Part shown: piece after piece, positions 4,406-30,945 of the stretch | Numbering within the stretch: position 1 is the stretch's first letter | How the letters are laid out: each line of letters begins with the position of its first letter | Virus record (IMG/VR): IMGVR_UViG_2802429246_000009 | Source: a virus | Lineage: Duplodnaviria; Heunggongvirae; Uroviricota; Caudoviricetes | Reading direction: 5' to 3' (one strand) | Length of the DNA stretch: 30,945 bases | Made by a program: the position numbers and the translations under genes | The notes under the pieces: generated by a model | Databases searched by the model: none | Seen by the model: only the letters and a program-made list of their open reading frames with translations | Told to the model about the DNA's origin: nothing

Positions 4406-4825
4406 TCGTGTTTCCGCTTCGCCGGAGCGCCTTTTCGCGCCATGTGATGAGTTCGGTCAGGCTCATGGGATACAGTTCTGATGGCGGCCAGTGAAATATC
4501 ACTGCCACATCCGCCATCAGGTCATCGACCGAGAGATTTTTCGGGAACGTCACTGCACCGAGTTCGGCGACAAAAAACCGACCACCTTACCGGCCAGCGC
4601 CACAAGGTCAGGCAGTTCCAGCGCGGCAACTTCCTGCTCGGTCAGCATCGGTGCCGTCATGCGCGGCAGCACCTTAATCAGTGCATCGACTTCGGAGTTC
4701 GCGACCGCAGCCAGACTGACACCGCGCAGCGTCCCGGCATTGGGTTTCATCAGCGTGACCTGTTCGATGACCTGCTCACCACGCTTGACCGGATTGTCCA
4801 GGGTAATCACATTTTCTTTGTTCAT
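4398..4825 (-). CDS. E': tail assembly chaperone gpE+E' (programmed -1 frameshift product)
   Basis: Hand translation of the -1 frame after the T-TTT-TTG slip site gives an open extension ...VAELGAVTFPKNLSVDDLMADVAVIFHWPPSELYPMSLTELITWAEKALRRSGNTNE ending at TAA 4398..4400 and overlapping the T start, as expected for P2 E+E'. Confidence 0.7.
4550..4825 (-). CDS. E: tail assembly chaperone gpE
   Basis: 91 aa ORF between FII and T; ends ...GKVVGFLSPNSVQ; contains the slippery site near its 3' end. Confidence 0.85.
   Translation of the reverse strand: MNKENVITLDNPVKRGEQVIEQVTLMKPNAGTLRGVSLAAVANSEVDALIKVLPRMTAPMLTEQEVAALELPDLVALAGKVVGFLSPNSVQ
4571..4577 (-). other. -1 ribosomal frameshift slippery heptamer TTTTTTG (E to E')
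   Basis: Minus-strand sequence GGT TTT TTG TCG (plus-strand caaaaaa at 4571..4577) near the 3' end of E; same heptamer class as the known P2 E/E' site. Confidence 0.65.
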
Positions 4826-6733: not shown

Positions 6734-7264
6734 TTATTGTGGTAGTTCCGGCCATTCAGGATTTGCAGGATCCACACGACTGACCAGAACGCTGTAGCGT
6801 TCCCATGCCTCCAGTCGGCTGCGCTCCTCATCTGTTGCCATATTCAGCCTGACCGCACGCTCCAGCGGCTGAATCAATGCCTCAGCTTCTGCAAGCAAGG
6901 TTGACTTTCGGACTTCGGCTTGCTGCTGCCGTTCTGCATCCGTATATACACGTTTAATTACAGTGTCATCTTTGAACATCCAGTTACCTGAAATATCAGC
7001 GCGACGGTTGGCGGTTATATTCGGTAACTCAACAACACTCAAGCCATCAGGGTTGAGCATTGACACATCTTTCTCAATGCAACGAATAATACCGTTCTCG
7101 TCGTAGGCCATTTTTAAAGTGTCTGGCTGGAAATTCTTTTGTTCCTCATACCAGTTTTTACCATCATCTGACCATAGCCAGACAATATTAAATCGTTTGG
7201 TTAATTCATATTGTTCAATAGTTTTTGGATTCCCTGCCTTAATATTTTTTAAATGCATCATCAT
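6734..7264 (-). CDS. G: tail fibre assembly protein gpG
   Basis: 176 aa immediately downstream of the tail fibre gene; start overlaps the H stop. Confidence 0.85.
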
Positions 7265-9786
7265 TAAATACTCCCTGCGTTATACCATGTGCCATTAATA
7301 CAATACTGAACAGGTCTTGCCTGCGCGATATCAATTAATTCATCAGTATTACTATTGACAACACCAGTAAGAACATGCCCTGACCTGTCATGCCAGCCAG
7401 TACCATTCCACGTTGGAAGGGATGACAAACCACCTAAGCGAATACCTGTAATAAAACGTGAATTACATTCCGCCTTGGTATAAGCGCCAATATCACCTGG
7501 CGATGGTTTATGAGCTGTCGTATAAATTTGCGCCCATCCAGACCATTGAGCATCATCTGTATCCCGCCTTGAACGGATATATGCTGGCGCGTAACCTCCA
7601 CTGGTGCCGCTCCAGCCGATAAGTAATTCACCTTCTCCAACTGCGGACACCCCCGTAAGATGAAGCACATTGCCATAGGTGTAAGGGTAGCCATTGTTAT
7701 ATGCCTCATACATCTGAATACCAGGCGTCCCCTTTGCACTCCCGCTTAATGCTGTGACGCGATTCCGGGATACCAGCGTATTAATATTTATATCGCCGGT
7801 GCCATCAAATTTGACACCATTAATATTTCGTGCCGTTTTCAGCTTTGTAGCTGTAGCAGCATTGCCGGACAGTTCGCCTGAAAGACCGGCGCTGAAGGTT
7901 TGTTTCGCCGCCCATGTCTGAGCTTCGTCGATAATTGGCACACGTCTTGTCGTGATCGTGCGGCTTCCCGGATTTCCTGAAATACGCACCATAAAAAAGC
8001 GGTAGTTCGCTTTACTTACAGTGCTGCGCCACACATGCATTGAGCGCCCCGTACCGGAATCATCACTCGGACCGACTGAGATGTTTATCAGGTTGCCATC
8101 AATGACGCCCCAGTCCATACCGTCGGGAATATTGGCCATGTTATCAAGCCGAACGGTTATCAGACTACCCGGCACAAAGTCGTAGGTCTGCCAGTCCAGA
8201 CTGGATAATTTTGCCACTGCGCCACCGATGCCCAGATTCAGAGGCAACGAAAAGGAGTTATATACTTCTCGCCATTCGGTCCATTTGCTCCCGGCGTAGA
8301 CGCGCTCAAAAGTGCGCCCCTGTGTGGTTTCTGATTTCCCTGTGGTTGTGTAACGCTGCCAGACAGACACACCATCAAAACGTCTGATTACTTCCAGTAT
8401 CCCAAGTAGTGTCGCGCCAACGGTGTCCAGCATCGGACCGTTTGTTGCCTTTCCTGTAACACTGTAAATACCGGGGTCGGTTAGAACATTTAAATCACCT
8501 TCGTAATAACGACTCTCTGACTGATGACCGACTCTTAACCACGGTTCCCACTGCGGATTTGATGCATCCCAGCTTGCCGCAAGGCAGCGGACATACATAT
8601 TTCCACGGCGAGTGGTATAACGTTGCGTTCTTCCATAATTCCCGCCTTCGAGGATCTCAAGCATCCCCTGAGCAAAGCCGCCTTCCTCTGGATAATTGCG
8701 TTCATAGGAAGCTATAGCCGAGCTACTGTTACGCCATAAACCAAGATGTTCGGCGGCTCCAAGCGTATTCAGGTCTATAGTCGTACTCAAAGGGCGGGTA
8801 GCTGATTGAGTGTGACGCCATACGCCCCACGGACCATCAGTGCCATTCCACTTATTGGCGAGTTTACGCATGTATACATTGCCGTCTCTTGTGGTAAAGC
8901 GTTGCGTGCCTGCAAAATTGCCGGCAGCAAAAACCTCAAGCACACCGACAGCATTATCTTCCGGGAAATTTTTCTCCAGTGTTGCGTTAGTTGAAGTAGC
9001 TTTAGACCAGATCCCCAGATAAGCCTTAACGGGACCAAATGTATTCAGATCAGCATCAACCGGCATTTCGCCGTTGTTTTTCATAAACGTCAGGCTGGTA
9101 ACGCCAACATTGTCCAGAAAAGCTGATTTATCCTGGATATCTGCACCATTCTGATTTTTCGCCAGACGTGAATTTGCGTTGTCATTTGCTGCCTTGACCG
9201 CTTTTGGCGTTGCCGCCAGCTTTTCACTGGTGCTGTTTGTTGCACTGCTTAACTGAGTAAAGCCTTTTTCCGTCAGCGTGGCGTCAGGATGGCGGCGGGA
9301 CTGCTCATGCTCTGCGATTTTGTCATCGACGTAATCCTGCGTCGCCATCACTGTGCTGGCATCAATACTCAGCTCAACGGACGCCACGTTGCTGAGAATA
9401 ATAACCATGCGGCAGGTCTGCGCACGTCCGGAGCCTTCAGCCAGTTCTGGCTTATAGCTTTCTGCCATGTTGGATACCGCAATCAGTGTTCCGGCATCGT
9501 CATACAGACCAAGCTCACGCATCCAGAAGCCGCCCACTTCGGGCGGTACAACCAGTTCAGCCACGATATAGTTTTTATTCTTGTTATCCACGCTGACTTT
9601 ATTCAGAGCGTGACGCCAGACCTCATGCACCAGTTTCGTCTGACCGGCATCCGGCACCGGTAATTTGCCATTACCGTCACCCACGGCCATTGCAGACAGG
9701 TTTACTTTTTTCCCGCCGGGGACAGTGGCGGCTGCCAGCTTCGCGGCTCCGGCAGTAGTGATAACGGTTTTAAATTTCGTGCTCAT
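7264..9786 (-). CDS. H: tail fibre protein gpH (extended, repeat-containing C-terminal region)
   Basis: 840 aa; N-terminus [40 protein letters not shown]... matches my recollection of P2 H; longer than P2 H (about 669 aa as I recall), with three tandem internal repeats. Confidence 0.85.
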
Positions 9787-18658: not shown

Positions 18659-20431
18659 ATGACCATCACCACAGACACCACTCTTTTACACGACCCGCGT
18701 CGTCAGGCGGCGCTGCTGTACTGGCAGGGGTTTTCCGTGCCGCAGATTGCCGCCATGTTGCAGATGAAACGCCCGACGGTGCAGAGCTGGAAACAGCGCG
18801 ACGGCTGGGACAGTGTTGCCCCCATCAGCCGTGTCGAAATGAGTCTGGAAGCGCGGCTGACCCAGCTCATCATCAAACCGCAGAAAACCGGCGGTGACTT
18901 CAAGGAAATTGACCTGCTGGGACGCCAGATTGAACGACTGGCACGGGTCAACCGCTACAGCCAGACCGGCAACGAGGCAGACCTTAATCCGAACGTCGCT
19001 AACCGCAACAAAGGCGGGCGGCGCAAACCGAAAAAGAATTTTTTCAGTGACGAGGCCATCGAAAAGCTGGAGCAGATTTTCTTTGAGCAGTCTTTCGACT
19101 ATCAGTTGCACTGGTATCGTGCCGGGCTTGAGCACCGCATCCGCGATATCCTGAAATCCCGCCAGATTGGCGCAACGTTTTATTTTTCCCGCGAGGCGCT
19201 GCTGCGCGCCCTGAAAACCGGCCATAACCAGATTTTTCTGTCGGCCAGTAAAACGCAGGCGTATGTGTTCCGCGAATACATCATCGCCTTTGCCCGGCTG
19301 GTTGACGTTGACCTGACCGGTGACCCGATTGTCCTGGGCAATAACGGCGCAAAACTGATTTTTCTCGGCACCAACTCCAACACCGCGCAGAGCCATAATG
19401 GCGACCTGTACGTCGACGAGATTTTCTGGATCCCGAATTTTCAGGTACTGCGTAAGGTGGCATCAGGTATGGCCTCACAGAGTCACCTGCGCTCGACCTA
19501 TTTCTCCACCCCGTCCACGCTGGCGCACGACGCCTACCCGTTCTGGTCGGGTGAACTGTTCAACCGGGGACGCGCCAGCGCCGCCGAACGCGTGGAAATC
19601 GACGTCAGTCATAACGCCCTTGCCGGTGGGCTTCTCTGTGCGGACGGTCAGTGGCGGCAGATTGTCACCATTGAGGATGCGCTGAAAGGCGGCTGCACGC
19701 TGTTCGACATTGAGCAGCTCAAACGCGAAAACAGCGCCGATGATTTTAAAAATCTGTTCATGTGTGAATTTGTTGACGACAAGGCGTCGGTGTTCCCGTT
19801 CGAGGAGCTGCAACGCTGCATGGTCGACACGCTGGAAGAATGGGAAGACTATGCGCCGTTTGCCGCCAATCCGTTCGGCTCCCGCCCGGTATGGATTGGC
19901 TACGACCCGTCACACCGTGGCGACAGTGCCGGATGCGTGGTGCTGGCACCGCCGGTGGTGGCCGGTGGCAAATTCAGAATACTTGAGCGTCACCAGTGGA
20001 AAGGCATGGACTTTGCCACCCAGGCTGAATCCATCCGCAAACTCACCGAAAAATACAACGTCGAATACATCGGTATTGATGCCACCGGCCTCGGTGTCGG
20101 CGTATTCCAGCTCGTGCGCTCGTTCTATCCCGCCGCGCGCGATATCCGCTACACGCCGGAAATGAAAACCGCAATGGTGCTCAAGGCAAAAGACGTTATC
20201 CGCCGTGGCTGTCTGGAATATGACGTCAGCGCCACCGACATCACCAGCTCGTTCATGGCTATCCGCAAGACCATGACCAGCAGCGGACGCAGCGCCACCT
20301 ATGAGGCCAGCCGCAGCGAGGAAGCCAGCCACGCCGACCTCGCCTGGGCGACCATGCACGCCCTGTTAAATGAGCCACTCACCGCCGGTATCAGCACTCC
20401 GCTGACATCCACCATTCTGGAGTTTTACTGA
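18659..20431 (+). CDS. P: terminase ATPase/large subunit gpP
   Basis: 590-aa product from ATG at 18659 (MTITTDTTLLHDPRRQ...) with a GAGGT RBS; length matches P2 P. Confidence 0.9.
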   Translation: MTITTDTTLLHDPRRQAALLYWQGFSVPQIAAMLQMKRPTVQSWKQRDGWDSVAPISRVEMSLEARLTQLIIKPQKTGGDFKEIDLLGRQIERLARVNRYSQTGNEADLNPNVANRNKGGRRKPKKNFFSDEAIEKLEQIFFEQSFDYQLHWYRAGLEHRIRDILKSRQIGATFYFSREALLRALKTGHNQIFLSASKTQAYVFREYIIAFARLVDVDLTGDPIVLGNNGAKLIFLGTNSNTAQSHNGDLYVDEIFWIPNFQVLRKVASGMASQSHLRSTYFSTPSTLAHDAYPFWSGELFNRGRASAAERVEIDVSHNALAGGLLCADGQWRQIVTIEDALKGGCTLFDIEQLKRENSADDFKNLFMCEFVDDKASVFPFEELQRCMVDTLEEWEDYAPFAANPFGSRPVWIGYDPSHRGDSAGCVVLAPPVVAGGKFRILERHQWKGMDFATQAESIRKLTEKYNVEYIGIDATGLGVGVFQLVRSFYPAARDIRYTPEMKTAMVLKAKDVIRRGCLEYDVSATDITSSFMAIRKTMTSSGRSATYEASRSEEASHADLAWATMHALLNEPLTAGISTPLTSTILEFY

Positions 20432-21465
20432 TGAGCAAGAAAAAAGGGAAAACACCGCAACCTGCGACAAAAACAATGACCGCCAGCGCCCCGAAAATGG
20501 AGGCATTCACCTTTGGTGAGCCGGTGCCGGTACTCGACCGCCGTGACATTCTGGATTACGTCGAGTGCATCAGTAACGGCAGATGGTATGAGCCACCGGT
20601 CAGCTTTACCGGTCTGGCAAAAAGCCTGCGTGCTGCCGTGCATCACAGCTCACCGATTTACGTCAAACGCAATATTCTGGCTTCAACGTTTATCCCGCAC
20701 CCGTGGCTTTCCCAGCAGGATTTCAGCCGCTTTGTGCTGGATTTTCTGGTGTTCGGTAATGCGTTTCTGGAAAAGCGTTACAGCACCACCGGTAAGGTCA
20801 TCAGACTGGAAACCTCACCGGCAAAATATACCCGCCGTGGCGTGGAAGAGGATGTTTACTGGTGGGTGCCGTCCTTCCATGAGCCGACAGCCTTCGCGCC
20901 CGGCTCCGTGTTTCACCTGCTGGAGCCGGATATTAATCAGGAGCTGTACGGCCTGCCGGAATATCTCAGCGCCCTTAACTCTGCCTGGCTGAATGAGTCA
21001 GCCACGCTGTTCCGCCGCAAGTATTACGAAAACGGCGCACATGCCGGATACATCATGTACGTCACTGATGCCGTGCAGGATCGCAATGATATCGAAATGC
21101 TCCGCGAAAACATGGTGAAGTCGAAAGGCCGCAACAACTTTAAAAATCTGTTTCTCTATGCCCCGCAGGGGAAAGCCGACGGCATTAAAATTATCCCGCT
21201 CAGTGAAGTGGCAACGAAGGACGATTTTTTTAATATCAAAAAAGCCAGCGCCGCTGACCTGCTGGACGCGCACCGTATCCCCTTTCAGTTGATGGGCGGC
21301 AAGCCGGAGAACGTCGGGTCGCTGGGTGATATTGAAAAAGTGGCAAAGGTCTTTGTCCGCAATGAGCTTATCCCGCTACAGGACAGGATTCGGGAAATAA
21401 ACGGCTGGCTCGGCCAGGAGGTCATCCGCTTTAAAAACTACTCACTGGAGACTGACAACGGCTGA
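20431..21465 (+). CDS. Q: portal protein gpQ
   Basis: 344 aa; start overlaps the P stop (TGATG); length and position as P2 Q. Confidence 0.9.
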   Translation: MSKKKGKTPQPATKTMTASAPKMEAFTFGEPVPVLDRRDILDYVECISNGRWYEPPVSFTGLAKSLRAAVHHSSPIYVKRNILASTFIPHPWLSQQDFSRFVLDFLVFGNAFLEKRYSTTGKVIRLETSPAKYTRRGVEEDVYWWVPSFHEPTAFAPGSVFHLLEPDINQELYGLPEYLSALNSAWLNESATLFRRKYYENGAHAGYIMYVTDAVQDRNDIEMLRENMVKSKGRNNFKNLFLYAPQGKADGIKIIPLSEVATKDDFFNIKKASAADLLDAHRIPFQLMGGKPENVGSLGDIEKVAKVFVRNELIPLQDRIREINGWLGQEVIRFKNYSLETDNG

Positions 21466-21470
21466 ACATC

Positions 21471-21492
21471 GCCGCCTGCGGGCGGCTTTTTT
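21471..21492 (+). terminator. rho-independent terminator after Q
   Basis: GC hairpin gccgcc-tgcg-ggcggc followed by TTTTTT, 6 nt after the Q stop. Confidence 0.65.
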
Positions 21493-21634: not shown

Positions 21635-21653
21635 GTGCTTTCCCCGCCTCGCC
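21635..21653. other. cos: cos site (19-nt cohesive end sequence)
   Basis: gtgctttccccgcctcgcc is the reverse complement of GGCGAGGCGGGGAAAGCAC, which I recall as the P2 cohesive end; located between Q and the old/tin-equivalent locus as in P2. Confidence 0.75.
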
Positions 21654-21777
21654 CGCCCGCTTCGTAGGGCGGTTTTAATGCAAATGCATTCTGGTTCCAT
21701 GCATTTTGATGGCAATAATATACGCACAAAATTTATCGGACATAACGTATGCATTTTCATGCACCGTCATGCCCCCC

Positions 21778-21836
21778 TTGACAATCCCATGATTTTTTAG
21801 AGCAAGCTTGCATTCCATACTGTCAAAACACATTAT
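21778..21836 (+). promoter_or_regulatory. putative sigma70-like promoter of the cargo operon
   Basis: TTGACA at 21778..21783 and TTGCAT (21808..21813) with a 17-nt spacer to CATTAT (21831..21836), about 30 nt upstream of the RBS; weak match, position uncertain. Confidence 0.3.
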
Positions 21837-21867
21837 ATACTTGGGCTTTTTATACAAGGACTTAAAC

Positions 21868-23568
21868 ATGTTAACAAAATTCTCAGGAAAAAATTACAAA
21901 GCATTTAAGGATTTCTCGTTCGAGATTAAGCCTATAACGGTGTTATTAGGAGCAAATAGCTGTGGAAAAAGCGCACTTATCAATTCACTTTTGATGTTTT
22001 CACAAACAGCAGAAACAATAAACATTTCCGAATCAGCACTAAGATTAAATGGAAATAAGGTTGGCATGGGGGAATCTCTGAATATCATCAGAGAAAAAAA
22101 CCCCAAAAACACCTTAAGTTTTTCATTTGAAATATCAAACCAACAATCCTTGCGATACGACATTCACAAAAGCAAGCGAGATTTTATTGACTTCTATTTT
22201 TCACTTGCCAGATATTTGGGACAAGTATTAAAAAGTGCGGCATCAACAACACCCAGCAGTGATTTGATGAACAATAGTTTTAATGACACGTTAAAAACTA
22301 TTGATAAAATCGAATCAAACTATATGTTTAGAGACACTTACAACTCTGCACAACTTAAAGCCATTTCTGATGGTGTTTGCGAATTATTATCAAAATACAG
22401 ACAACTACCTGAGGATGTTGCAAAAAAATCCCGTCCACATCTCGATCGACTAGCAGAGTTTGTTAATATTGTTTCTTTCGAAAACATTCAAAGCAGCTTA
22501 ATGTCATTAGCATCTCTTAGTGCAAAAAAAATATCCCCCAAACGAATTGATTATGATTTTTGCTTTGATAAAAAATCAAACCAACTAAAAATAACCGGGT
22601 GCGCTTTTCATAATCACTTAGGCGAATGCATCACCAGCTTGGGTATATCTAAAGGGAAATTCTTTTTACGCTCTGACGTTATTAAAAGAACTCACTTAAG
22701 CAAATCCCGAGAAGAGATATCGAAACTAATCAATTTCAATTCACTATCCCTTATAGATGAAATTCAAAACGTTAATTTCATTGACAAACACATTGTGTCC
22801 CTTGACCCATTCGCTAGTTTATTCTGCAACTATCTTGAGAAGCTAACAAAAGCATTTATCTCTGAGTTTAATGGTGTAAAAATAAATCATGTCAGCCCAT
22901 TAAGGGCATTCCCTCAACGCTACTATCTTTTAGACAAGTCTATACAGCATACTTTTCTTAATGTTCTGGAAGGTAATGAACTGGCTGAGGTGTTAAAGAA
23001 AAATCCAGAAATAAAAAATAAAATTAATATTTTACTGGCAAAGTTCAATCTTGAAGTAGATGTCGTCATGGTTAATGACATCATTCATAAGATCAACATC
23101 ACCCAAGATTCCATCTCTCTAGAGTTAACAGATGTAGGTTTTGGCATATCTCAGGTTTTACCTATTTTGGTTCAAGCTTATTTGTCCCCTAAAAATTCCA
23201 TCACTATTATAGAACAACCAGAAATTCACTTACACCCCAAAATGCAAGCATGGCTCACTGATGCTTTAATTCACATTGCATTAAAAGAGAAAAAAAGATT
23301 TATTATTGAAACTCACAGTGACGCTCTAATCAGAAGAATCAGATTGCGTATTGTTGATACTAAATCGAGCCTTACACCAAATGATGTAATGCTTTGCAAT
23401 CTTGAAAGAAAATCTGAAGATAATGTCACTAGTTTAAAAGTGATTCCTATTACCGAGGATGGAGATATAACTTGGCCTGCGGATTTTTTAGACATTGAAA
23501 TTCAAGACACACTTCAAATCCAGAATTTTAAAGTTAAAAAACATCTTAAAAATAAAGGTCTGTTATAA
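21868..23568 (+). CDS. ABC-type (OLD/AAA_15/AAA_21-like) ATPase, candidate defence ATPase; no TOPRIM domain
   Basis: 566 aa from ATG 21868 (AAGGA RBS 7 nt upstream; the ORF-track start at 21808 is TTG). Walker A GANSCGKS about 21949..21972; signature-like LTDVGFGISQVLPIL; Walker B/D-loop ITIIEQPEIHLHP about 23200..23238; H-loop FIIETHSD. Only about 70 aa follow the H-loop. Confidence 0.8.
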   Translation: MLTKFSGKNYKAFKDFSFEIKPITVLLGANSCGKSALINSLLMFSQTAETINISESALRLNGNKVGMGESLNIIREKNPKNTLSFSFEISNQQSLRYDIHKSKRDFIDFYFSLARYLGQVLKSAASTTPSSDLMNNSFNDTLKTIDKIESNYMFRDTYNSAQLKAISDGVCELLSKYRQLPEDVAKKSRPHLDRLAEFVNIVSFENIQSSLMSLASLSAKKISPKRIDYDFCFDKKSNQLKITGCAFHNHLGECITSLGISKGKFFLRSDVIKRTHLSKSREEISKLINFNSLSLIDEIQNVNFIDKHIVSLDPFASLFCNYLEKLTKAFISEFNGVKINHVSPLRAFPQRYYLLDKSIQHTFLNVLEGNELAEVLKKNPEIKNKINILLAKFNLEVDVVMVNDIIHKINITQDSISLELTDVGFGISQVLPILVQAYLSPKNSITIIEQPEIHLHPKMQAWLTDALIHIALKEKKRFIIETHSDALIRRIRLRIVDTKSSLTPNDVMLCNLERKSEDNVTSLKVIPITEDGDITWPADFLDIEIQDTLQIQNFKVKKHLKNKGLL

Positions 23569-24570
23569 ATGTTTTACACTCATTGTATAAGCCCTGAATT
23601 CATGGGGCTTCACATCAAAAATATGGACACTTTTATTTCGATTTTTATGGGTGTTTTAATGAATCCGCAGAACCAGATCGTTTTAGATGAGGCAGGAATA
23701 ATTGAACAACAATATTTATTAAGTCTTAATAACGACAAATCAGCTTTTTTGCTCTACCAAACTTGGGAGAAAGCCATAAAATCAGACAGTTGCCAAGGTA
23801 AACTATTACTTTCTTCTCCCAATATATCATCTTCAATACATGATTATGTAGTTTCAGCTATTTCATGTGCTATAACCACAAACGACAAAACAATATTAAC
23901 TGCTGATAACAATTTGTACAGCGCGGCTTTACCTATTTTATCCAGACAAAAAATTCACTTACTGGGAATAAGTCATCTAACCCCTCAATCATCAGCAAGC
24001 ATTATAGGTAAACATATGTCTTTTACAAAACTTGATTATGATATTGCCTGGTCTCTAGAGAGATTGGTTCGGCTTCATCGAAAAGGGAACACAGAGGATG
24101 ACTTAAATGACTTACTCCGTGAATACTTGCTTGCGAAGGAATACGAGATAAAAGACCAAACTCGTGAAGGCATATCTACAAGTGGAAAGAGCGCCGGAGA
24201 ACTTGATATTATTGTTGAGCACAACTCAAACATGTTTGCAATATTAGAAGCAATGAAGCTTAGTCAGATAAACAAGGAGTATATCACCATTCATTACAAA
24301 AAAATGCTTGTCAATTACAACCCTCTGGACGTAAAGAGATTATTCCTCATTACTTATTACGATGGAAAAAAATTCGATACCTGGTGGGATAACTACGTTG
24401 AATTTGTAAAAAGTATAGACTACACCACATTAAACCCTGAAGTCGAAAACACAACATTTGTTAACACAGAAAAGATTAACACGAACTTTGGGAATGTAAA
24501 AAAAATGCTACACCACGGCCTGGCTAATGGTGAACAATTTTCCGTCATACATTATGCAGTAAAACTGTAA
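23569..24570 (+). CDS. hypothetical protein, partner of the ATPase (possible effector/nuclease; unassigned)
   Basis: 333 aa; ATG immediately follows the gene-1 TAA (TAAATG), AAAGG about 10 nt upstream; AT-rich codon usage like gene 1. Start codon choice is uncertain (other in-frame Met at residues 12, 19, 27, 31). Confidence 0.7.
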   Translation: MFYTHCISPEFMGLHIKNMDTFISIFMGVLMNPQNQIVLDEAGIIEQQYLLSLNNDKSAFLLYQTWEKAIKSDSCQGKLLLSSPNISSSIHDYVVSAISCAITTNDKTILTADNNLYSAALPILSRQKIHLLGISHLTPQSSASIIGKHMSFTKLDYDIAWSLERLVRLHRKGNTEDDLNDLLREYLLAKEYEIKDQTREGISTSGKSAGELDIIVEHNSNMFAILEAMKLSQINKEYITIHYKKMLVNYNPLDVKRLFLITYYDGKKFDTWWDNYVEFVKSIDYTTLNPEVENTTFVNTEKINTNFGNVKKMLHHGLANGEQFSVIHYAVKL

Positions 24571-24578
24571 CTTTTATA

Positions 24579-24608
24579 ACGTGGTGATTGACATCACCAC
24601 GTTTTTAT
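24579..24608 (+). terminator. rho-independent terminator after the cargo operon
   Basis: 10-bp perfect stem acgtggtgat / atcaccacgt with loop TGAC, followed by TTTTAT; 8 nt after the gene-2 stop. Confidence 0.65.
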
Positions 24609-24871
24609 CCTAAAACAAAATAACAGAAGTTTAGTTAAAACCGCCTTTCAATTCTTTTAGATATATGGTCTATATACCAGAATTATTATTTCAGGTAATC
24701 GTCCGCATGATGAGTTCATTGCTATCCATTGCTCTATAGTTTCGGCTATCAACATATCGAACAACCTGACCTGTACTCACCAATTTGCATAAAACTGTCA
24801 CACCCCAAGGTTTTTACCAACACTGAAAATAACACCAATCAGATAATTATTTATTTAGATTAACTTGGTTA

Positions 24872-27160
24872 TCATAAATTCCATTCGGATACTGTTGAAT
24901 AACCAAGCCACTCATCAGCGACCGGATACGTGAATTTTTTCCCGTCATAATTTACGGTCGCGCCACGCGCCAGCGCCTCAAGCTCCCATCGCTGCGGCCT
25001 GATACCGTTCTGAGCAAGGTCAACGCGGATACGGGTAATTTGCAATCGTTCCGACCGGGTCAGCCTGGCTGATGGCGCTATTTCATGCGGTTTTAACGGG
25101 CTTCCGTTTCTTTGCTGACGATTTGGTGTTCTCAGTCCGTGTTTTAATGCACCTCTGAGCGCCCTCATAACCTCCGGATCATTCCATTCGATAACACCGT
25201 CATCAACCAGATTAAGCACTGCTGCGGCGTGCTCAGAAGGTGTGGGAGCCGGTAACGAAGCATCACCGCCGGTGAGCTTTCCACAGTTATTGACAGGACT
25301 CCGAGGCGCGGCGATGCCGCTTTTTAAAGTCAAAGGCTCAACGACCGGAACTTTCGGCACAATGCGCCAGTCCGTCGTTCTGGTGATATGAATATGACGC
25401 GCGCCGAGATGCGGCGCGTAAATGCCGACCACTCTCTCGACTTCTTCCTCGTACTCGTTAACTTCATCCGACGGACTACGGGCAACCCTGACAGTCTGAC
25501 AATCGCGCGGAACATTTGCCCCACCCTGCGCGCTGATATACAACGCAAAATCACCACTGTCTGCGGCAGCGCGTGCAGCCTCGACGCGTTCGTCAAACTC
25601 ATCAGCAATGCTGACGCCGCGAGGCAATTTGCGTAGTTCACGGTAAGCCCCCATTGTCGGCAGGCCAACCGTTTTAAATTGCGGAATGCGCCACGTTGAC
25701 GCCCATGCGGTAACAGCCGCGGCAGTGTCTTTCAGCGGCCTGCCGGTATCGTTATCGAGCTGACCATCCAGTGCATAGCCGTCGATATTTTTCGAAATGT
25801 ATTTCGCGATATATCCCGCAGCACCGCCCCGGTTAAGGTGTTTTGCCTGAAAACGGTTTCGCGCGGCTCCTCTTTCGTCGCCATCCTCTTTGAGCGCATA
25901 GCGACGCATGATTTCGATAATCTGGTTACGCTGGCGTGGATTACAAAAAAGCATCATATGCCAGTGCGGCGTTCCGTCGTGGTGTGGCTCGACGACTCGC
26001 AAACCGTAGACCTGTAAATCATTATCCTTGAATGCCGTGCGCATCAGGCTCCAGATACGGCAGAGATAACGCTGCGCATCCTTTGGATTAAATGCCTCAT
26101 CGTTCCAGCCGTGATTTAGCTGGACGGTTTTACTTTCGCCTTTTCTGACCTGACGTGTCGGGTGATACTTTGACGGCGCGGTCAGCGTGATAAACATCCC
26201 CACATCACCCTCTGCGGCGGCGTAACGCTCAATACCGGCGATGGTGTTCATCAGCTCCATCCGGCGAATTTCTGGATTAGAAATACTGCCCATCACCTTA
26301 CTGATAAGGTCGATGCGCTCGCCGGTTTCCCTGTTCTCAAGGTCACACGATTTAAGAAATTCCAGATTTGCCTGGCGGCGCGCACGCACATCACGAATGG
26401 CATGTTTACTGGCATAAGGAGAACGGTCTTTATTGACCTCCCCGACAGCAATCAGTAACGCCTCATGCCAGCGCATACGCTGGCCTTTAAGCTGATGAGT
26501 CCACCACTCATCGTTAAACAGGCGGGCAATGGCAGAATATGCCTGCCTCGTGGTCATCTGCCCTTTACGGTATTTTTTCCAGTAAAGCGGGGAAATATTG
26601 AAAGCACGTGCAGCGCCAGCAACATGACCATACAGATGTGCCTGCGCCTCATCCGTAAACAGCGATTCTTTTTCGCCATGCGCATCCACCCAGGCATCGC
26701 AGAGTTCCTCATACATCATGAAAAGCTGCGATGAGATACGGGCAGCAAACTTTTTCAGCTCCTTGTCATTCATTCCCGGCAGGCGCGCATAGTGGTCACG
26801 CTCTGCCAGAAACAGCAACGACGCGTCGGTGTTCATTTCATGGCGCTGATTCACACGCTCAATGCGCGGCCATAAACGACGCTGAAAAGTGGATGTGAGG
26901 AAATAAACCCCGTGCACCGGGCTTTTATTGCGCCGGATGTAGTCATAGCGTGAAGTAAACAGCGAGCGCAAAAAGTAAGGCAGGCGGTTAATCGTGGATA
27001 AAACACCTTGCACCTGACGCATCTCGTCACGTGTAAGGGGTCTTTCGCGCCCGACAGCCTCGCGTGGCGCGTTCCATGCATAAGCACCGGTAAACGCCTT
27101 ACCGGTGCCTGTGGCAAATGCTGACGGAGGGACAAAACGCCCGGAGGCTTTAACGGTCAT
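24872..27160 (-). CDS. A: replication initiation protein gpA (rolling-circle nickase)
   Basis: About 762 aa from ATG at 27160 (MTVKASGRFVPPSAF...); the ORF-track start at 27202 is TTG. Size and position as P2 A. Confidence 0.85.
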   Translation of the reverse strand: MTVKASGRFVPPSAFATGTGKAFTGAYAWNAPREAVGRERPLTRDEMRQVQGVLSTINRLPYFLRSLFTSRYDYIRRNKSPVHGVYFLTSTFQRRLWPRIERVNQRHEMNTDASLLFLAERDHYARLPGMNDKELKKFAARISSQLFMMYEELCDAWVDAHGEKESLFTDEAQAHLYGHVAGAARAFNISPLYWKKYRKGQMTTRQAYSAIARLFNDEWWTHQLKGQRMRWHEALLIAVGEVNKDRSPYASKHAIRDVRARRQANLEFLKSCDLENRETGERIDLISKVMGSISNPEIRRMELMNTIAGIERYAAAEGDVGMFITLTAPSKYHPTRQVRKGESKTVQLNHGWNDEAFNPKDAQRYLCRIWSLMRTAFKDNDLQVYGLRVVEPHHDGTPHWHMMLFCNPRQRNQIIEIMRRYALKEDGDERGAARNRFQAKHLNRGGAAGYIAKYISKNIDGYALDGQLDNDTGRPLKDTAAAVTAWASTWRIPQFKTVGLPTMGAYRELRKLPRGVSIADEFDERVEAARAAADSGDFALYISAQGGANVPRDCQTVRVARSPSDEVNEYEEEVERVVGIYAPHLGARHIHITRTTDWRIVPKVPVVEPLTLKSGIAAPRSPVNNCGKLTGGDASLPAPTPSEHAAAVLNLVDDGVIEWNDPEVMRALRGALKHGLRTPNRQQRNGSPLKPHEIAPSARLTRSERLQITRIRVDLAQNGIRPQRWELEALARGATVNYDGKKFTYPVADEWLGYSTVSEWNL

Positions 27161-27425
27161 GTGAGCCAAAAGCCTCTGAACAACGCTTGCTGAGTTGCTC
27201 AACCTGCGCGTTTAAATCAGCAAAAGATTTTGCGCTTCCGGTCAGAATATCGTGATGCATCATGCCGGAAACGAGCTGGCTTAATTTCGGGTAATAACCA
27301 ACCACCGCCAGCCATTCCTGGCCGGCGTTTTTACCGCTTTCCGCTCTCTTTTTCTCGTGGAGAATAAACTGAAAGCTGTCACTGGTAACGACATAACGTT
27401 CGCCAATTTCGATACGAATACTCAT
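27150..27425 (-). CDS. hypothetical early protein (P2 orf83 position)
   Basis: 91-aa ORF tightly packed between the zinc-finger ORF and A; no recognisable motif. Confidence 0.5.
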   Translation of the reverse strand: MSIRIEIGERYVVTSDSFQFILHEKKRAESGKNAGQEWLAVVGYYPKLSQLVSGMMHHDILTGSAKSFADLNAQVEQLSKRCSEAFGSHDR

Positions 27426-27646
27426 GCCATTCTCCGGTAATGCTTGTTTTTTGCTTCAAAGACTGACTGGCAGGAAACACAACGCGTGGCTGACGGATAA
27501 GCCGCACGACGGGCAGCAGGTATTGGCGCGTCACACTCTTCGCAAACCAGCGCAGAAGCACCGCAATGTTTTACCCTTGCCGCGTTAATCTGGCGCTCCA
27601 GTAATTCAGCTTGTTGTTCCTGAATAAAATCTACGTTGTCCGGCAT
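27422..27646 (-). CDS. TraR/DksA-family C4 zinc-finger protein
   Basis: 74 aa with CEEC...x17...CVSC spacing typical of the DksA/TraR zinc finger; start overlaps the stop of the upstream ORF (TAATG). Confidence 0.6.
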   Translation of the reverse strand: MPDNVDFIQEQQAELLERQINAARVKHCGASALVCEECDAPIPAARRAAYPSATRCVSCQSVFEAKNKHYRRMA

Positions 27647-27936
27647 TACCAGTTCCTTTTGTCGTTCAGTTTCTTAAATTCATCAGCGCAATAGCTGGTG
27701 ACTTCTGTCGTTAATTTTGTCAGTTCATCCACGGAGGAAATTTGCTTATGAAATACAGCGCGTTTAACAAGTAAATTGACCACATCAGACAGGAGATTTA
27801 ATTTATCCGCATAAATGGCTATAGTTGATTCAACCATATCCCCAGTGTTTTTATCGCGTTTAATATCAGCTAGAGACAAATCACCATTTTTCATAACTGA
27901 AATCTTCAGCCAGTTATTAAGCAATATATTTTTCAT
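27646..27936 (-). CDS. hypothetical protein (AT-rich small ORF)
   Basis: 96-aa ORF; ATGA overlap with the upstream ORF; AT-rich relative to flanking genes. Confidence 0.5.
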   Translation of the reverse strand: MKNILLNNWLKISVMKNGDLSLADIKRDKNTGDMVESTIAIYADKLNLLSDVVNLLVKRAVFHKQISSVDELTKLTTEVTSYCADEFKKLNDKRNW

Positions 27937-28184
27937 TCGCTATATGCCCTCTCCGCAGAATCAATCATTTCCCGGCCATTATCGGTAATACAGAAACCTT
28001 CTCTTGATTTGGTCACAAGCCCCCATTTCCCCATTGCTATAAATGCTTTTTCCACACGACTAGGCCAGGAGCGGAAGACATCGCTTGATGGATGTAGTGG
28101 AGTCTTGTCATCTAATTTTTTAAGTAATGAAAGTTGATAATCTGTTAAGCGTTTCCTGAACCATTTTGTATTTGTCATCTCCAA
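27933..28184 (-). CDS. hypothetical protein (AT-rich small ORF)
   Basis: 83-aa ORF, coupled to the next ORF by ATGA overlap; no recognisable motif. Confidence 0.5.
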   Translation of the reverse strand: MEMTNTKWFRKRLTDYQLSLLKKLDDKTPLHPSSDVFRSWPSRVEKAFIAMGKWGLVTKSREGFCITDNGREMIDSAERAYSE

Positions 28185-28192
28185 CTTTCCTG

Positions 28193-28435
28193 TTATTTAT
28201 TGAGTCCTAGATTATGGAATTTGGCAGACTCCTGACTGAGCAACTCGACTATCTCCACGCGGGATAACTCCGCCTTTGTGATGTGGCGAATCATGGCATC
28301 AAGATGAGACGAAAAGCGCGTTGCTGCGTCGGCCTGTGCTTCGGTTCTGGCCTGTTGCAGCATTAATGCGTATTTACCGCACTGATTTTCAGAAACTGTA
28401 TGCATGACTTTCTCCAGGCAAAAAGAAGCCCGCAC
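28193..28435 (-). CDS. hypothetical early protein
   Basis: 80-aa ORF downstream of B in the same operon; start codon uncertain. Confidence 0.45.
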
Positions 28436-28467
28436 AATTAAGTGCGTTAAAAACTCTGGTTAATTAC

Positions 28468-28968
28468 TTAATGCAGATATTGCTCTGGTTTTACCGACGT
28501 CAGAATTGTCGGTGCATACTCAAACAGACTGAATAATTCACGTAATGCACGGAATAAAGCATCACGCCAGTAACATGATTCTTCATTAATTCGCCAGTAC
28601 GGCTGGTTAAATTCTTTTTCTGTCAGTCGTGCGTGCATAAATAAAGTGCGACGCTGACTTACTGTTAAAAAACTAATATATGCATACTCACTTGCGCCAA
28701 CCTGACGGCGTTTTGAGAATGCCCCACGCAATTCATCAATTGCACAAACCAGCCGTTCACGTTCGACGTCGTTCATTTCTTCAAAACGCATCGTTGCGTG
28801 ACGCTGTTTTAACTGCGCATGGAAGCAAACCGTTAGCCGTTCGCGTTCCATCATCTGATTATAATAATCGCATGTCTCCTGCCAGCGAGGGACGGCCAGA
28901 TGCTTACCAATTATCCGGCGCATAGCTGCTGGCTGTTTTTCAACGAGATTGAGCGTCATCACTGTCAT
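28468..28968 (-). CDS. B: replication protein gpB (helicase-loader-like)
   Basis: 166 aa, same length and position as P2 B. Confidence 0.8.
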   Translation of the reverse strand: MTVMTLNLVEKQPAAMRRIIGKHLAVPRWQETCDYYNQMMERERLTVCFHAQLKQRHATMRFEEMNDVERERLVCAIDELRGAFSKRRQVGASEYAYISFLTVSQRRTLFMHARLTEKEFNQPYWRINEESCYWRDALFRALRELFSLFEYAPTILTSVKPEQYLH

Positions 28969-29162
28969 TTCCAGACCCTCCGGCTTTTCAGAAAGGTCAG
29001 AGCCTTTTTTAACGGACTCTGTTTTTTGGTGCGGATAATGATTCCCTTACGCCCCTTACCATGGGTGATGGTGAAGTCAATCGCCCTGGGGCTTTCGTTA
29101 CGCAATAACTGAGCAATACAACGCGGCTCATTCATAATCACAACCCCATCCACAAAAGCCAT
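28965..29162 (-). CDS. hypothetical small protein between cox and B (P2 orf78 position)
   Basis: 65-aa ORF; the true start may be the internal Met at about 29135, just after the cox stop. Confidence 0.4.
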   Translation of the reverse strand: MAFVDGVVIMNEPRCIAQLLRNESPRAIDFTITHGKGRKGIIIRTKKQSPLKKALTFLKSRRVWK

Positions 29163-29410
29163 GCATCACGCTGTTCAACCGGTCGGTTATAAAACGCCTC
29201 ATGCACACCGCGATTGAACTCAGGAATGAAAACCAGCTTGTCGCCTGCGCGAGCATTTGGTTTGTTTGGATCACGAAACTCAACAACCGGCAGCTTATTA
29301 GCTTTAATCATTTCAACAACCGCAGTACGCGGTTTTCCGAGCAATTCTGCGAACTTATCAGGATGTACCGCGTCAATCGGATACTGAATTACATAGTTGT
29401 TTGCGTCCAT
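29138..29410 (-). CDS. cox: Cox-like excisionase/early-promoter regulator (HTH)
   Basis: About 90 aa from ATG at 29410 with an AGGTG RBS; ...FAELLGKPRTAVVEMIKANKLPVV... resembles the P2 Cox helix-turn-helix region; first gene of the early operon, divergent from C. Confidence 0.65.
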   Translation of the reverse strand: MDANNYVIQYPIDAVHPDKFAELLGKPRTAVVEMIKANKLPVVEFRDPNKPNARAGDKLVFIPEFNRGVHEAFYNRPVEQRDAWLLWMGL

Positions 29411-29558
29411 AAAACACACCTGTCGTGCTAATCTTATTTGTTCCAGCCCTTTCAAAACCGCTCAGGAACGCTCCTGACTGGCTGGACTCACGCCCCAAAA
29501 GGTTTCCAAACAAGTACCTTTTGAGGGGAATATAGTCTCCATAAGGGAACCATGTCAA
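29411..29558. promoter_or_regulatory. immunity switch region (divergent Pe/Pc promoters and operators expected)
   Basis: 148-bp gap between divergent cox and C; TATAGT (29531..29536) is a candidate -10 for the C promoter; operators not mapped. Confidence 0.5.
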
Positions 29559-29852
29559 ATGAAAATATCGGAGAAACTTCGCGCAATCCGCAAAGCAGAG
29601 GGATTAACGCAAAAAAAATTTTGCGAACTTAGCGGATTAGCACTTAGCTCATTGAAAAATTACGAAGGGGGACATAAAGAGCCTGGACTACAAATCGTAA
29701 AGCAAGTGGTAAACACGCCTCTGTTTAAAAAATATACACTGTGGATTATGACAGATGAGGTTGCGCCAGAAGCCGGGCAGATTTCCCCGGTCGTCGCACA
29801 CTCTGGGCAAGAAGAAACAACCTCGTCACACTCAGACCGCAAAACTGGCTAA
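29559..29852 (+). CDS. C: immunity repressor C (HTH)
   Basis: 97 aa; N-terminal HTH (ISEKLRAIRKAEGLTQKKFCELSGL) and C-terminal ...FKKYTLWIMTDEVAPEAGQISPVVAHSGQEETTSSHS... resembling P2 C as I recall it; AAGGGA RBS. Confidence 0.8.
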   Translation: MKISEKLRAIRKAEGLTQKKFCELSGLALSSLKNYEGGHKEPGLQIVKQVVNTPLFKKYTLWIMTDEVAPEAGQISPVVAHSGQEETTSSHSDRKTG

Positions 29853-29964
29853 CTATTTACCGAAATTACATGCACATAAAATGCATGTTACTGGTAAAAA
29901 AATATTCACCACACAACCATAAAGGGTCAAACAACAAGAAAACACGTGCTCATCGGAGGGCTTT

Positions 29965-30945
29965 ATGAGTATCAGAAAGCTCGATGATGGACGTTATGAA
30001 GTGGATATTAGGCCTCGCGGTCGCGATGGAAAGCGCATCCGCAGGAAATTTGAAAGAAAAGCTGAAGCACTAGCATTTGAGCGATACACAATCGCCAATG
30101 CCAGTCAGAAAGAATGGGGAGGCCAGCGAGCAGACCGCCGAACTTTGACAGAATTGCTCGACATCTGGTGGAAATACCACGGGCAAAACCACGAGCATGG
30201 GACAAAAGAGTTTAATCATCTGCTCAAAACCATCAGCGGCATAGGTGATATACCAGTGAGTCGGATGAACAAAAGGGCTTTGATGGATTATCGCTCCATG
30301 CGACTACGTGATGGCATCAGTGCTGCAACGATAAACCGCGACATGTACCGATTATCCGGCATGTTCACAAAATTAATTCAATTAGATGAATTTTCCGGGC
30401 AACACCCAATTCACGGACTGCCGCCACTGACGGAGGCTAACCCTGAAATGACGTTCCTGGAAAAAGCAGAAATCGAAAAACTGCTAAATGTTTTGACTGG
30501 TGATGACTTACTTGTCGCGCTTTTATGTCTGAGCACTGGAGGAAGATGGACGGAAGTTGCCACGCTAAAACCAGCACAGATTACAAGTTGCAGGGTTACC
30601 TTCCTGAAAACCAAAAACGGTAAAAAGCGAACAGTGCCGATATCTGAGGAACTGGAGAAAAAAGTTAAAGAGGAGGCCAGCGCCAAATTGTTCAAGGTCG
30701 ATTATGAGAAGTTTTGCGGGATTTTACGCAGAGTAAAACCTGACATACCTCCCAATCAGGCAACCCACATTCTGCGGCATACATTCGCAAGCCATTTCAT
30801 GATGAATGGGGGCAATATAATTGCACTGCAACAGATTCTGGGGCATGCGAGCATTCAGCAGACAATGACCTATGCGCATCTTGCGCCTGACTACCTGCAG
30901 AACGCCGTCGCTCTGAATCCACTAAAAGGCGGAGTGACGTTATAA
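29965..30945 (+). CDS. int: tyrosine integrase
   Basis: 326 aa; N-terminus MSIRKLDDGRYEVDIRPRGRDGKRIRRKF similar to P2 Int; C-terminal catalytic-region motifs ATHILRHTFAS and LGHASIQQTMTYAHL; GGAGGG RBS 4 nt upstream. Confidence 0.9.
   Translation: MSIRKLDDGRYEVDIRPRGRDGKRIRRKFERKAEALAFERYTIANASQKEWGGQRADRRTLTELLDIWWKYHGQNHEHGTKEFNHLLKTISGIGDIPVSRMNKRALMDYRSMRLRDGISAATINRDMYRLSGMFTKLIQLDEFSGQHPIHGLPPLTEANPEMTFLEKAEIEKLLNVLTGDDLLVALLCLSTGGRWTEVATLKPAQITSCRVTFLKTKNGKKRTVPISEELEKKVKEEASAKLFKVDYEKFCGILRRVKPDIPPNQATHILRHTFASHFMMNGGNIIALQQILGHASIQQTMTYAHLAPDYLQNAVALNPLKGGVTL

Follow-up and report, generated by a model that had tools for sequence, protein, structure and literature searches.

A P2-like prophage within the 30,945-nt stretch of DNA analyzed here (the window) carries, between cos and replication gene A, a two-gene cassette that probably represents a prophage-borne anti-phage module, of the class that pairs an ABC ATPase with a nuclease effector. 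The motifs, the linkage of the genes, their location in a hotspot, and their profile relationships are established directly, as are the folds at the level of predicted models, and together they describe a plausible anti-phage system that is not PARIS, OLD, or AbiL.

An acquired cassette in the P2 old/tin hotspot

The position and composition of the cassette (Table 1) support its assignment as horizontally acquired cargo in the cos-proximal defense hotspot of P2. As stated in a preliminary description of this DNA, the cargo is AT-rich: GC content is 0.33–0.36 over positions 22001–24500 and 0.33–0.39 over the whole 3.2-kb segment, compared with 0.51–0.61 over most of the phage backbone. Similarity to ∼2150 other E. 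coli P2-like prophages stops near position 21690, and the full cargo is carried by just 5 of 5426 genomes, to which its non-coding tail is likewise confined. We take the 19-mer GGCGAGGCGGGGAAAGCAC, located next to the cargo on the side of portal gene Q, to be the P2 cos sequence. The gpA-gpQ locus has been defined as the old/tin hotspot (Rousset et al. 2022), and the same 19-mer is also present in P4 cloned sequences (Rousset Table S2A). A repeat search found no flanking direct or inverted repeats marking an insertion mechanism, and the window gave neither Rfam nor tRNA matches.

The two genes are tightly coupled, as described previously, with the stop codon of gene 1 and the start codon of gene 2 abutting as TAAATG, and RefSeq annotates the same two coding sequences in an E. 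coli chromosome. The terminator ascribed to the operon was also recovered, as a strong hairpin just 3′ of gene 2 (24578–24603), in a region enriched in terminator-like sites (6 found versus 2.0 expected). The promoter-like region claimed for it was not: a sigma-70 scan of the sequence upstream of gene 1 (21690–21867) found no site, and the regional count of such sites is at chance level (14 found versus 13.2 expected).

Table 1. Features of the cassette and its flanks (window coordinates)
Feature	Position	Strand	Basis or remarks
Portal gene Q	20431–21465		Flank of cassette on one side
P2 cos 19-mer	21635–21653	-	Exact single match; 0 expected by chance
AT-rich cargo	21690–24871	.	Between cos and gene A; similarity breakpoint, GC
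Gene 1, NsnB/HEC-03-type ABC ATPase, 566 aa	21868–23568	+	ATG after AAGGA Shine-Dalgarno
Walker A, G28–S35, GANSCGKS	21949–21972	+	Read from sequence; nearly invariant in 47 homologues
Hypervariable insertion, aa 93–335, helical bundle plus β-sheet; candidate sensor surface	22144–22872	+	
Deviant ABC signature, G424-F-G426, GxG for SGG	23137–23145	+	DVGFGISQ invariant in homologues
Walker B, ITIIEQPE, E449-Q450 for D-E	23200–23223	+	
C-terminal helix, aa 545–562, DUF3696-like tail; gene 2 predicted to dock here	23500–23553	+	Model
Gene 2, effector candidate (PIN-like plus PD-(D/E)xK-like), 333 aa	23569–24570	+	
Gene 2 N-terminal PIN-like domain, aa 1–135, predicted catalytically inactive	23569–23973	+	
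Gene 2 C-terminal restriction-endonuclease-like domain, aa 150–333	24016–24567	+	
Intrinsic terminator, 11-bp stem, 4-nt loop, T-run	24578–24611	+	Terminator scan and sequence
Non-coding AT-rich tail of cargo	24604–24871	.	No ORF ≥ 50 aa; no Rfam match
Replication gene A	24872–27202	-	Flank of cassette on other side

Gene 1 resembles defense-type ABC ATPases

Our results support gene 1 as an OLD/SMC-like (AAA_15/OLD-like) defense-type ABC ATPase without a fused TOPRIM. The absence of a C-terminal TOPRIM, already noted in the preliminary description, agrees with the lack of a Toprim match in Pfam and with a predicted C-terminus made of β-strands and one helix. The ABC motif set described there as complete is indeed present in its Walker A, Walker B, and H-loop (ETHS) strings, all conserved across 47 homologues, with E449, Q450, P451, and E452 invariant, but it is not fully canonical: in addition to the E-Q Walker B and the GFG signature, the Q-loop has Arg instead of Gln within an invariant PLR. 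The natural E-Q Walker B hints at a switch based on ATP binding, not at fast hydrolysis.

The insertion has a median identity to homologues of 18–24%, compared with 65–75% for the catalytic core, and is modeled as helices at residues 93–222 and strands at 226–268; we infer that it may act as the sensor. Pfam DUF3696 is matched by 14 of the 47 homologues (best E-value 8e-6), though not by the window protein itself. AF3 models of NsnB4-NsnC2 (PMC12065111) suggest, by analogy, that the C-terminal helix could dock gene 2.

The best PADLOC profile for gene 1 is NsnB (2.8e-52, ∼177 bits, profile positions 1–339 of 345), which matches 47/47 homologues; a score of this size points to a remote sister family. 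HEC-03B matches residues 407–561 (6.8e-41) and also every one of the 47 homologues (best 1e-50). NsnB, HEC-03B, and PDC-M55A score 40–80 bits higher than PARIS AriA (1.3e-27), and NsnB, HEC-03, and PDC-M55 fit far better than AbiLi. In PHROGs, gene 1 falls in the unknown-function family phrog_21420 (2.6e-67) and gene 2 has a weak match only, while the match of gene 1 to OLD in the PDB (6p74) is confined to the Walker B region (9.6e-9).

These relationships bear on whether the pair serves defense at all, rather than being a DNA-metabolism pair of phage or host (an SbcCD/Rad50-Mre11-like repair or recombination module), a toxin-antitoxin addiction module stabilizing the prophage, or a housekeeping ABC transporter ATPase. 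We consider this non-defense reading improbable as a whole; an addiction role, whose mechanism overlaps with that of abortive infection, retains some probability. The top profiles are all defense-system models, the gene 1 model shows no coiled coil or hook as long as those of SMC or Rad50, gene 2 does not belong to the Mre11/SbcD phosphoesterases, and the cassette moves among hotspots of mobile genetic elements (MGEs) independently of any phage backbone. The transporter variant was rejected: gene 1 has no canonical LSGGQ or Q-loop, neither a permease neighbor nor another membrane partner is present, and transporter nucleotide-binding domains rank below the defense ATPases.

Gene 2 is a candidate nuclease effector

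Profile searches, which led from gene 1 to NsnB, PDC-M55A, and HEC-03, matched gene 2 to no model in Pfam, NCBIfam, or PADLOC (none at E ≤ 1 in PADLOC). Weak Pfam matches of gene 2 to DUF6602 and DUF2463 (E-values 0.06–0.09) were dismissed as noise, as they were not reproduced across the family; the sole match of the NCBIfam search was MADS3, at 45 bits and so far below the 420-bit cut-off. Among gene 2 homologues, PADLOC matches were sub-threshold and limited to the unrelated models Unk_05 and CARF_PDDEXK, and a PDB sequence search with the gene 2 profile returned nothing. The earlier statement that gene 2 has no placeable motif is superseded at the level of fold, where the AlphaFold model (pLDDT 84) gives a PIN-like domain followed by a PD-(D/E)xK domain. 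Foldseek, proposed in the preliminary description, found no significant match for gene 2 in the PDB.

In this model, the N-terminal domain lacks the PIN catalytic acids, and its acidic positions are not conserved. The C-terminal domain is predicted to adopt a PD-(D/E)xK fold resembling BglII and BamHI, including the αβββαβ core. D213 and E227 are universally conserved, position 229 is M or L, and H242 and K245 are 99% conserved. Sequence identity to the type II restriction endonucleases BamHI, BglII, BstYI, and OkrAI is 7–12%. Unlike those enzymes, the domain has a hydrophobic residue at the canonical third catalytic position, carries H242 and K245 on the following helix, has no methyltransferase partner, and is used as an effector fused to other domains, in settings that include Roc-COR, STAND-like, and ABC-ATPase proteins. 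Its family, with the signature E..ND...DQ[TS]RxGxS...GExD...E...HxxK...Y, spans about a thousand representative protein clusters, includes fusions to bacterial LRR-Roc-COR and STAND-like proteins, and has no Pfam model.

The top Foldseek matches, all non-significant, were Can2 and Cdn1 (E-values 4e-3 to 1e-2, Foldseek probability 0.3–0.44), and one of 29 gene 2 homologues weakly matched the PADLOC model CARF4--CARF_PDDEXK (E-value 0.02). Both observations would fit a Can2/Card1-like signal-activated nuclease, in which a Rossmann-like N-terminal domain of gene 2 binds a small-molecule ligand in a CARF-like manner instead of docking to the ATPase; we regard this as highly improbable.

Even less credence attaches to a split OLD, which the preliminary description had considered plausible and in which, as in PARIS, AbiL, or OLD-type systems, an ATPase would release a TOPRIM nuclease on sensing an anti-restriction protein. 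The arrangement of an ATPase with a separate effector is supported, but the specific PARIS/AbiL reading is not: Pfam and PADLOC gave no DUF4435, Toprim, RloB, or AriB signal in gene 2 or its 28 homologues, the modeled gene 2 folds are not Toprim, and gene 1 ranks lower on the corresponding ATPase profiles. Membership in PARIS, AbiL, or OLD was rejected on these grounds.

Relationship to Menshen, HEC-03, and other systems

Menshen consists of NsnA-NsnB-NsnC (Millman 2022), for which a detailed domain analysis is available (PMC12065111). NsnB has an E-N Walker B and a deviant GxG signature (PMC12065111), and gene 1 shares the E-Q/N Walker B, an Arg where the Q-loop would have Gln, the GxG signature, and a DUF3696-type C-terminal helix. 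At the level of fold, gene 2 is predicted to follow the order of NsnC, an inactive PIN-like N-terminal domain and then a C-terminal nuclease-type effector.

The cassette also differs from Menshen. NsnA (ParB-DUF262 plus ParBDB) is missing from the cassette, which cos/Q and A flank directly; gene 1 is ∼566 aa long, with a 240-aa hypervariable insertion; and gene 2 matches no PADLOC NsnC model, its PD-(D/E)xK-like effector lying outside the 15 NsnC C-terminal families described, among them BECR, Toprim, PLD, DUF4160, PB-UF1, and DUF2103-like (PMC12065111). A full Menshen assignment was rejected because NsnA is missing, and PADLOC-type rules that need all three genes would not call the cassette Menshen.

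Since sporadic domain loss has been noted in Menshen (PMC12065111), the cassette could instead be a degenerate or truncated Menshen that lost NsnA and is either non-functional or dependent on an NsnA encoded elsewhere, as the best ATPase profile and the NsnC-like architecture of gene 2 would allow. The distribution of the pair makes this very unlikely. The two-gene form is intact and conserved across 22 loci (Escherichia, Serratia, Pseudomonas, and viral contigs), co-evolving down to 34–43% identity, and none of the 22 has an adjacent NsnA (DUF262) gene or ORF of the right size. DUF262 is absent among the Pfam-annotated neighbors of 10 loci (L002–L011), and L007 has no large upstream ORF. In the P2-like loci among the 22, the pair sits between phage genes A and Q, and decay would not be expected to keep the abutting start and stop codons together with conserved catalytic residues.

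HEC-03, found embedded in Hma systems, combines an ABC ATPase with a protein described as VapC-like PIN; experiments in E. coli showed protection that depends on both genes (Payne et al., bioRxiv 10.1101/2024.01.29.577857). Our cassette is similarly a two-gene pair of ABC ATPase and PIN-fold protein without a third sensor gene, but its PIN-like domain lacks catalytic acids, an extra 180-aa restriction-endonuclease-like domain comes after it, gene 2 has no match to the HEC-03 partner model, and the locus is a P2 hotspot, not Hma. The effectors of PARIS (AriA/AriB), Gabija (GajA/GajB), and P2 Old are TOPRIM proteins (AriB, GajA, Old) and that of Septu (PtuA/PtuB) is HNH (PtuB), whereas gene 2 is modeled as PIN plus PD-(D/E)xK; for gene 1, the PARIS, Septu, Gabija, and Old profiles rank well below NsnB and HEC-03. 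Unlike in the OLD nucleases P2 Old and GajA, no TOPRIM is fused or adjacent.

The suggestion that the system was possibly undescribed goes too far. The pair is already in GenBank as P2-EC5 ORF555/ORF333, a variant 48% identical to that of the window, and is listed as hotspot system #69 (Rousset 2022), whose sequences belong to this family. HEC-03 and Menshen NsnB/NsnC are validated examples of this class of architecture. A literature search found no published functional test or system name for the pair.

Proposed mechanism

We propose that the cassette acts as a superinfection-exclusion or abortive-infection module; its complex, trigger, substrate, and defense phenotype are suggested by analogy with related systems. 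Gene 1 would most likely oligomerize, and its C-terminal helices may clamp the catalytically dead PIN-like domain of gene 2, thereby holding gene 2 inactive. Infection would be sensed via the ATPase itself, for which the hypervariable 240-residue insertion offers a candidate surface, and sensing could alter the ATP-bound state of gene 1. The altered state may then free the restriction-endonuclease-like domain of gene 2 or switch it on, and the nucleic acid of the phage, the host, or both would be degraded by this domain, such that phage production stops.

A bolder version of this proposal, which we offer as tentative and rather doubtful, is a sensor-autonomous "minimal Menshen". Here, the ATPase would sense infection through its own insertion without ParB-DUF262, and an ATP-bound switch (the E-Q Walker B) would license a previously unmodeled restriction-endonuclease-like effector family. 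Because LRR-Roc-COR GTPases and STAND-like NTPases are coupled to this family as well, it would be a new and widely shared immune effector domain connecting ABC-ATPase, Roc-COR, and STAND immunity.

Implications

Current annotation of the locus reads "AAA family ATPase + hypothetical protein". Since no PADLOC model recognizes gene 2, defense finders that rely on models are likely to overlook it. If the cassette is protective, the ABC-ATPase/nuclease immunity superfamily would gain a named member made of two genes, and the Menshen NsnB-NsnC module would be shown to work without the NsnA ParB-DUF262 protein, which would bear directly on the proposal that sensing falls to NsnA and that NsnB is a mere transducer. 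The cassette would also make an effector domain that lacks a Pfam model, and is found in LRR-Roc-COR and STAND-like proteins too, accessible to experiments in E. coli with a P2-like prophage.

A two-gene cargo in the cos-proximal hotspot

An almost complete P2-like prophage makes up the window: tail genes come first, capsid, terminase and portal genes follow, and A, B, cox, C and int lie at the far end. Two genes between Q and A meet at a TAAATG junction, the gene 1 stop abutting the gene 2 start, and RefSeq has the same two CDS ('AAA family ATPase' and 'hypothetical protein'). Their GC content is 0.33–0.36, compared to 0.51–0.61 in most of the backbone. An exact 19-mer, which we take to be P2 cos, places the cassette in the gpA-gpQ locus near cos, the site of old and tin in P2, as the preliminary description had proposed for this AT-rich cargo. 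This locus is a hotspot of anti-phage systems (Rousset et al. 2022).

Likeness to ∼2150 other E. coli P2-like prophages ends near 21690, and the cargo is present in only 5 of 5426 complete genomes. The AT-rich non-coding tail after the terminator (268 nt) is confined to the same five genomes, and contains no ORF of ≥ 50 aa and no Rfam match. No GenBank phage record holds the window's cassette variant. The terminator anticipated for the operon was recovered 3′ of gene 2; its promoter-like region was not, as the promoter scan found no such site 5′ of gene 1 and a regional count of 14 against 13.2 expected.

Features of the prophage cargo region and other low-GC stretches
Feature	Coordinates	Strand	Remark
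Gene 1	21868-23568	+	566-aa ORF
Gene 2	23569-24570	+	333-aa ORF
Portal gene Q	20431-21465		flank of gene pair
Replication gene A	24872-27202	-	flank of gene pair
P2 cos 19-mer (presumed)	21635-21653		exact match
Terminator	24578-24603		3′ of gene 2; 11-bp stem + T-run
Non-coding tail	24604-24871		AT-rich
Terminator-like hairpin	21471-21486		GC-rich; 3′ of Q
Terminator-like hairpin	21653-21672		GC-rich; 3′ of Q; directly adjoins cos 19-mer
Low-GC stretch	7001-7500		GC 0.40; tail-fibre region (ORFs 6734-7264, 7264-9786)
Low-GC stretch	27501-30945		GC 0.42-0.47; early/immunity/integrase region

Gene 1 is an NsnB-type ABC ATPase

Gene 1 matches Pfam AAA_15 (5.9e-22) and AAA_21. Its top PADLOC match is NsnB, the ABC ATPase of Menshen (2.8e-52, one stretch spanning profile positions 1–339 of 345), followed by PDC-M55A (1.2e-41) and 'HEC-03B' (6.8e-41), and all 47 aligned homologues give the same pattern. 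AriA ranks lower, at 1.3e-27, and AbiLi, GajA, PtuA and Old are far weaker. A split-OLD arrangement of the PARIS or AbiL kind had been thought plausible; given this ranking and the lack of a TOPRIM or DUF4435 signal in gene 2, that identity is rejected.

The ABC motif set, previously described as complete, is not fully canonical. Across the 47 homologues Walker A is near-invariant and the H-loop ETHS invariant, but three further invariant motifs deviate: EQPEIHLHP has a Walker B E-Q rather than D-E, DVGFGISQ a GxG signature rather than SGG, and HVSPLRAFPQRYY an Arg in place of the Q-loop Gln. The E-Q pair of gene 1 (E449-Q450) is encoded at 23212–23217. Substitution of E by Q at the catalytic base traps well-studied ABC ATPases in the ATP-bound state and is used experimentally for this effect, so the invariant E-Q suggests, speculatively, that gene 1 may act as an ATP-bound switch rather than a motor. 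NsnB is reported to share the three deviations (EN Walker B, R for Q, and GxG; PMC12065111).

DUF3696, the tail domain of NsnB, is matched by 14 of the 47 homologues and not by gene 1 itself. The AlphaFold model of gene 1 (pLDDT 83, pTM 0.82) shows an ABC core, an insertion that is helical (93–222) and then a beta-sheet (226–268), and a terminal helix (545–562). Residues 93–335 are hypervariable, with median identity to homologues of 18–24% versus 65–75% in the catalytic core.

Gene 2 combines PIN-like and nuclease-like folds

Gene 2 had been thought to lack any placeable motif, and neither it nor 28 aligned homologues has a significant match in Pfam, NCBIfam, PADLOC or PDB sequences; its fold, however, can be placed. 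The AlphaFold model (29-sequence alignment, pLDDT 84.4) has two domains, an N-terminal PIN-like one and a C-terminal PD-(D/E)xK-like one, the latter resembling the nucleases BglII (8.5), OkrAI (8.4), BstYI (8.3) and BamHI (8.2), as well as McrC, EC869 CdiA-CT, NucC and HamA. The acidic tetrad needed for PIN catalysis is missing from the first domain: positions after beta1 (HCI[C/S]P), beta3 (LLSS) and beta4 (T-x-[D18/N11]-N-N) hold no conserved acids, and D40 alone is invariant.

An exhaustive profile search returned 1089 representative clusters; among the 146 best representatives, which were re-analyzed, 29 are full-length, with both the PIN-like and the nuclease domain, and 105 have the C-terminal domain only, including LRR-Roc-COR GTPases, a weak nSTAND match, and pentapeptide-repeat, LRR and zinc-ribbon proteins. 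Residues E176, N180, D181, D196, Q197, R199, G201, S203, G210, E211, D213, E227, H242, K245, Y250 and Y263 are each kept in ≥ 80% of the 105. Such conservation across unrelated architectures fits a catalytic module, despite a hydrophobic residue at the canonical ExK lysine position.

The domain lies at the C-terminus of the LRR-Roc-COR GTPases P0232, P0289 and P0315, of a weak nSTAND_NTPase5-match protein, and of pentapeptide-repeat and zinc-ribbon proteins, and is internal in P0218, between two Roc-COR units; P0298, P0225, P0294 and P0226 are among the carriers. No Pfam model covers it in any of 20 proteins scanned.

Tight linkage and distribution of the pair

In all 22 loci compared (E. coli, Serratia, Pseudomonas, and 11 IMG/VR viral contigs), the gene 1 homologue lies directly upstream of the gene 2 homologue on the same strand, and wherever gene coordinates were called, the two coding sequences adjoin directly or share ≤ 8 nt. 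Gene 1/gene 2 identities drop in parallel (99.8/98.2, 92.6/88.9, 68.9/66.7, 51.7/46.6, 48/41, and 43/34%), as would be expected of interacting partners. No DUF262 (NsnA) gene adjoins the pair in the loci examined.

Among P2-like phages with A proteins 33–98% identical to that of the window, the pair is without exception placed between A and Q, in one orientation (loci L002–L006, L015–L017, and L020) or the opposite (the window, L001, L009–L010, L012–L014, L018, and L019), which indicates that it was acquired or inverted more than once. A search of the window for repeats bounding the cassette found none. Other contexts for the cassette include an integrase/AlpA island in Pseudomonas. A second E. 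coli variant (48/41% identical) is just as uncommon, being present in 6 of 5426 genomes.

Some copies appear frameshifted or pseudogenised, given that NZ_CP024228.1, one of the five cargo-bearing genomes, has the ATPase annotated as two CDS and that the clusters hold fragments of 193, 227 and 315 aa (P0190, P0192, and P0172). In the E. coli contig L005 (9283–17002), a rearranged prophage, a variant cassette is directly followed by baseplate and tail genes, not portal and terminase, and an Mrr_cat gene among tail-fibre genes marks a possible second cargo site. The 99%-identical viral-contig copy L012 (IMGVR_UViG_2731957842_000001, 3678–4516) is without gene 1 residues 1–72 and the portal C-terminus, which suggests that the cos region is spanned by a deletion or by a break in the assembly.

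Relation to known systems and proposed mechanism

The suggestion that the cassette might be undescribed holds only for its name and function, as the pair is already catalogued but unnamed. A variant with 41% identity stands in GenBank as AM157364.1 ('Bacteriophage P2-EC5 proviral ORF555 and ORF333', from ECOR5), its products entered as hypothetical proteins, and both proteins of system #69 ('AAA_15/AAA_21', 62 of 18 150 hotspot loci; Rousset 2022, Table S5B) fall in the family, protein 2 at 42% identity. The family motifs are absent from the tables of tested systems in that study, database names for both proteins are all generic, and literature searches returned no other name, accession mention or test.

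The nearest relatives are Menshen, with which gene 1 shares the three motif deviations but whose NsnA is absent here, and the validated HEC-03, an ABC ATPase with a VapC-like PIN protein, both genes being needed (Payne et al., bioRxiv 2024); here the ATPase is instead paired with an inactive PIN-like domain joined to a nuclease-like one. The A/B labels of HEC-03 appear swapped, since PADLOC-DB model PDLC04148 'HEC-03B' matches the gene 1 ATPase (residues 407–561), whereas in the preprint HEC-03A is the ATPase and HEC-03B the PIN protein. Predicted NsnB4-NsnC2 complexes have DUF3696 helices on either side of the inPIN domain, an arrangement likened to PARIS, Septu and Gabija (PMC12065111). The description that suits the cassette best is a two-gene ABC-ATPase system related to Menshen and HEC-03, lacking NsnA and with an REase-like effector that no family model covers.

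A defence-clade ATPase with intact Walker A, natural E-Q Walker B and helical tail lies in a defence hotspot. Its partner is closely linked to it and co-evolves with it, and joins a PIN-like domain that is inactive to a nuclease-like domain that is conserved. The original defence hypothesis is plausible and now stronger, and we think it fairly probable that the cassette is a prophage-borne anti-phage module of ABC ATPase and nuclease effector; the specific docking and release steps are put forward with less assurance. A gene 1 oligomer would grip gene 2 through the PIN-like domain, and the ATPase would sense infection, its hypervariable insertion being the candidate sensor surface because NsnA is absent. 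A change in nucleotide state would then release or activate the gene 2 nuclease, and the outcome may be that infection aborts or that competing phages are excluded.
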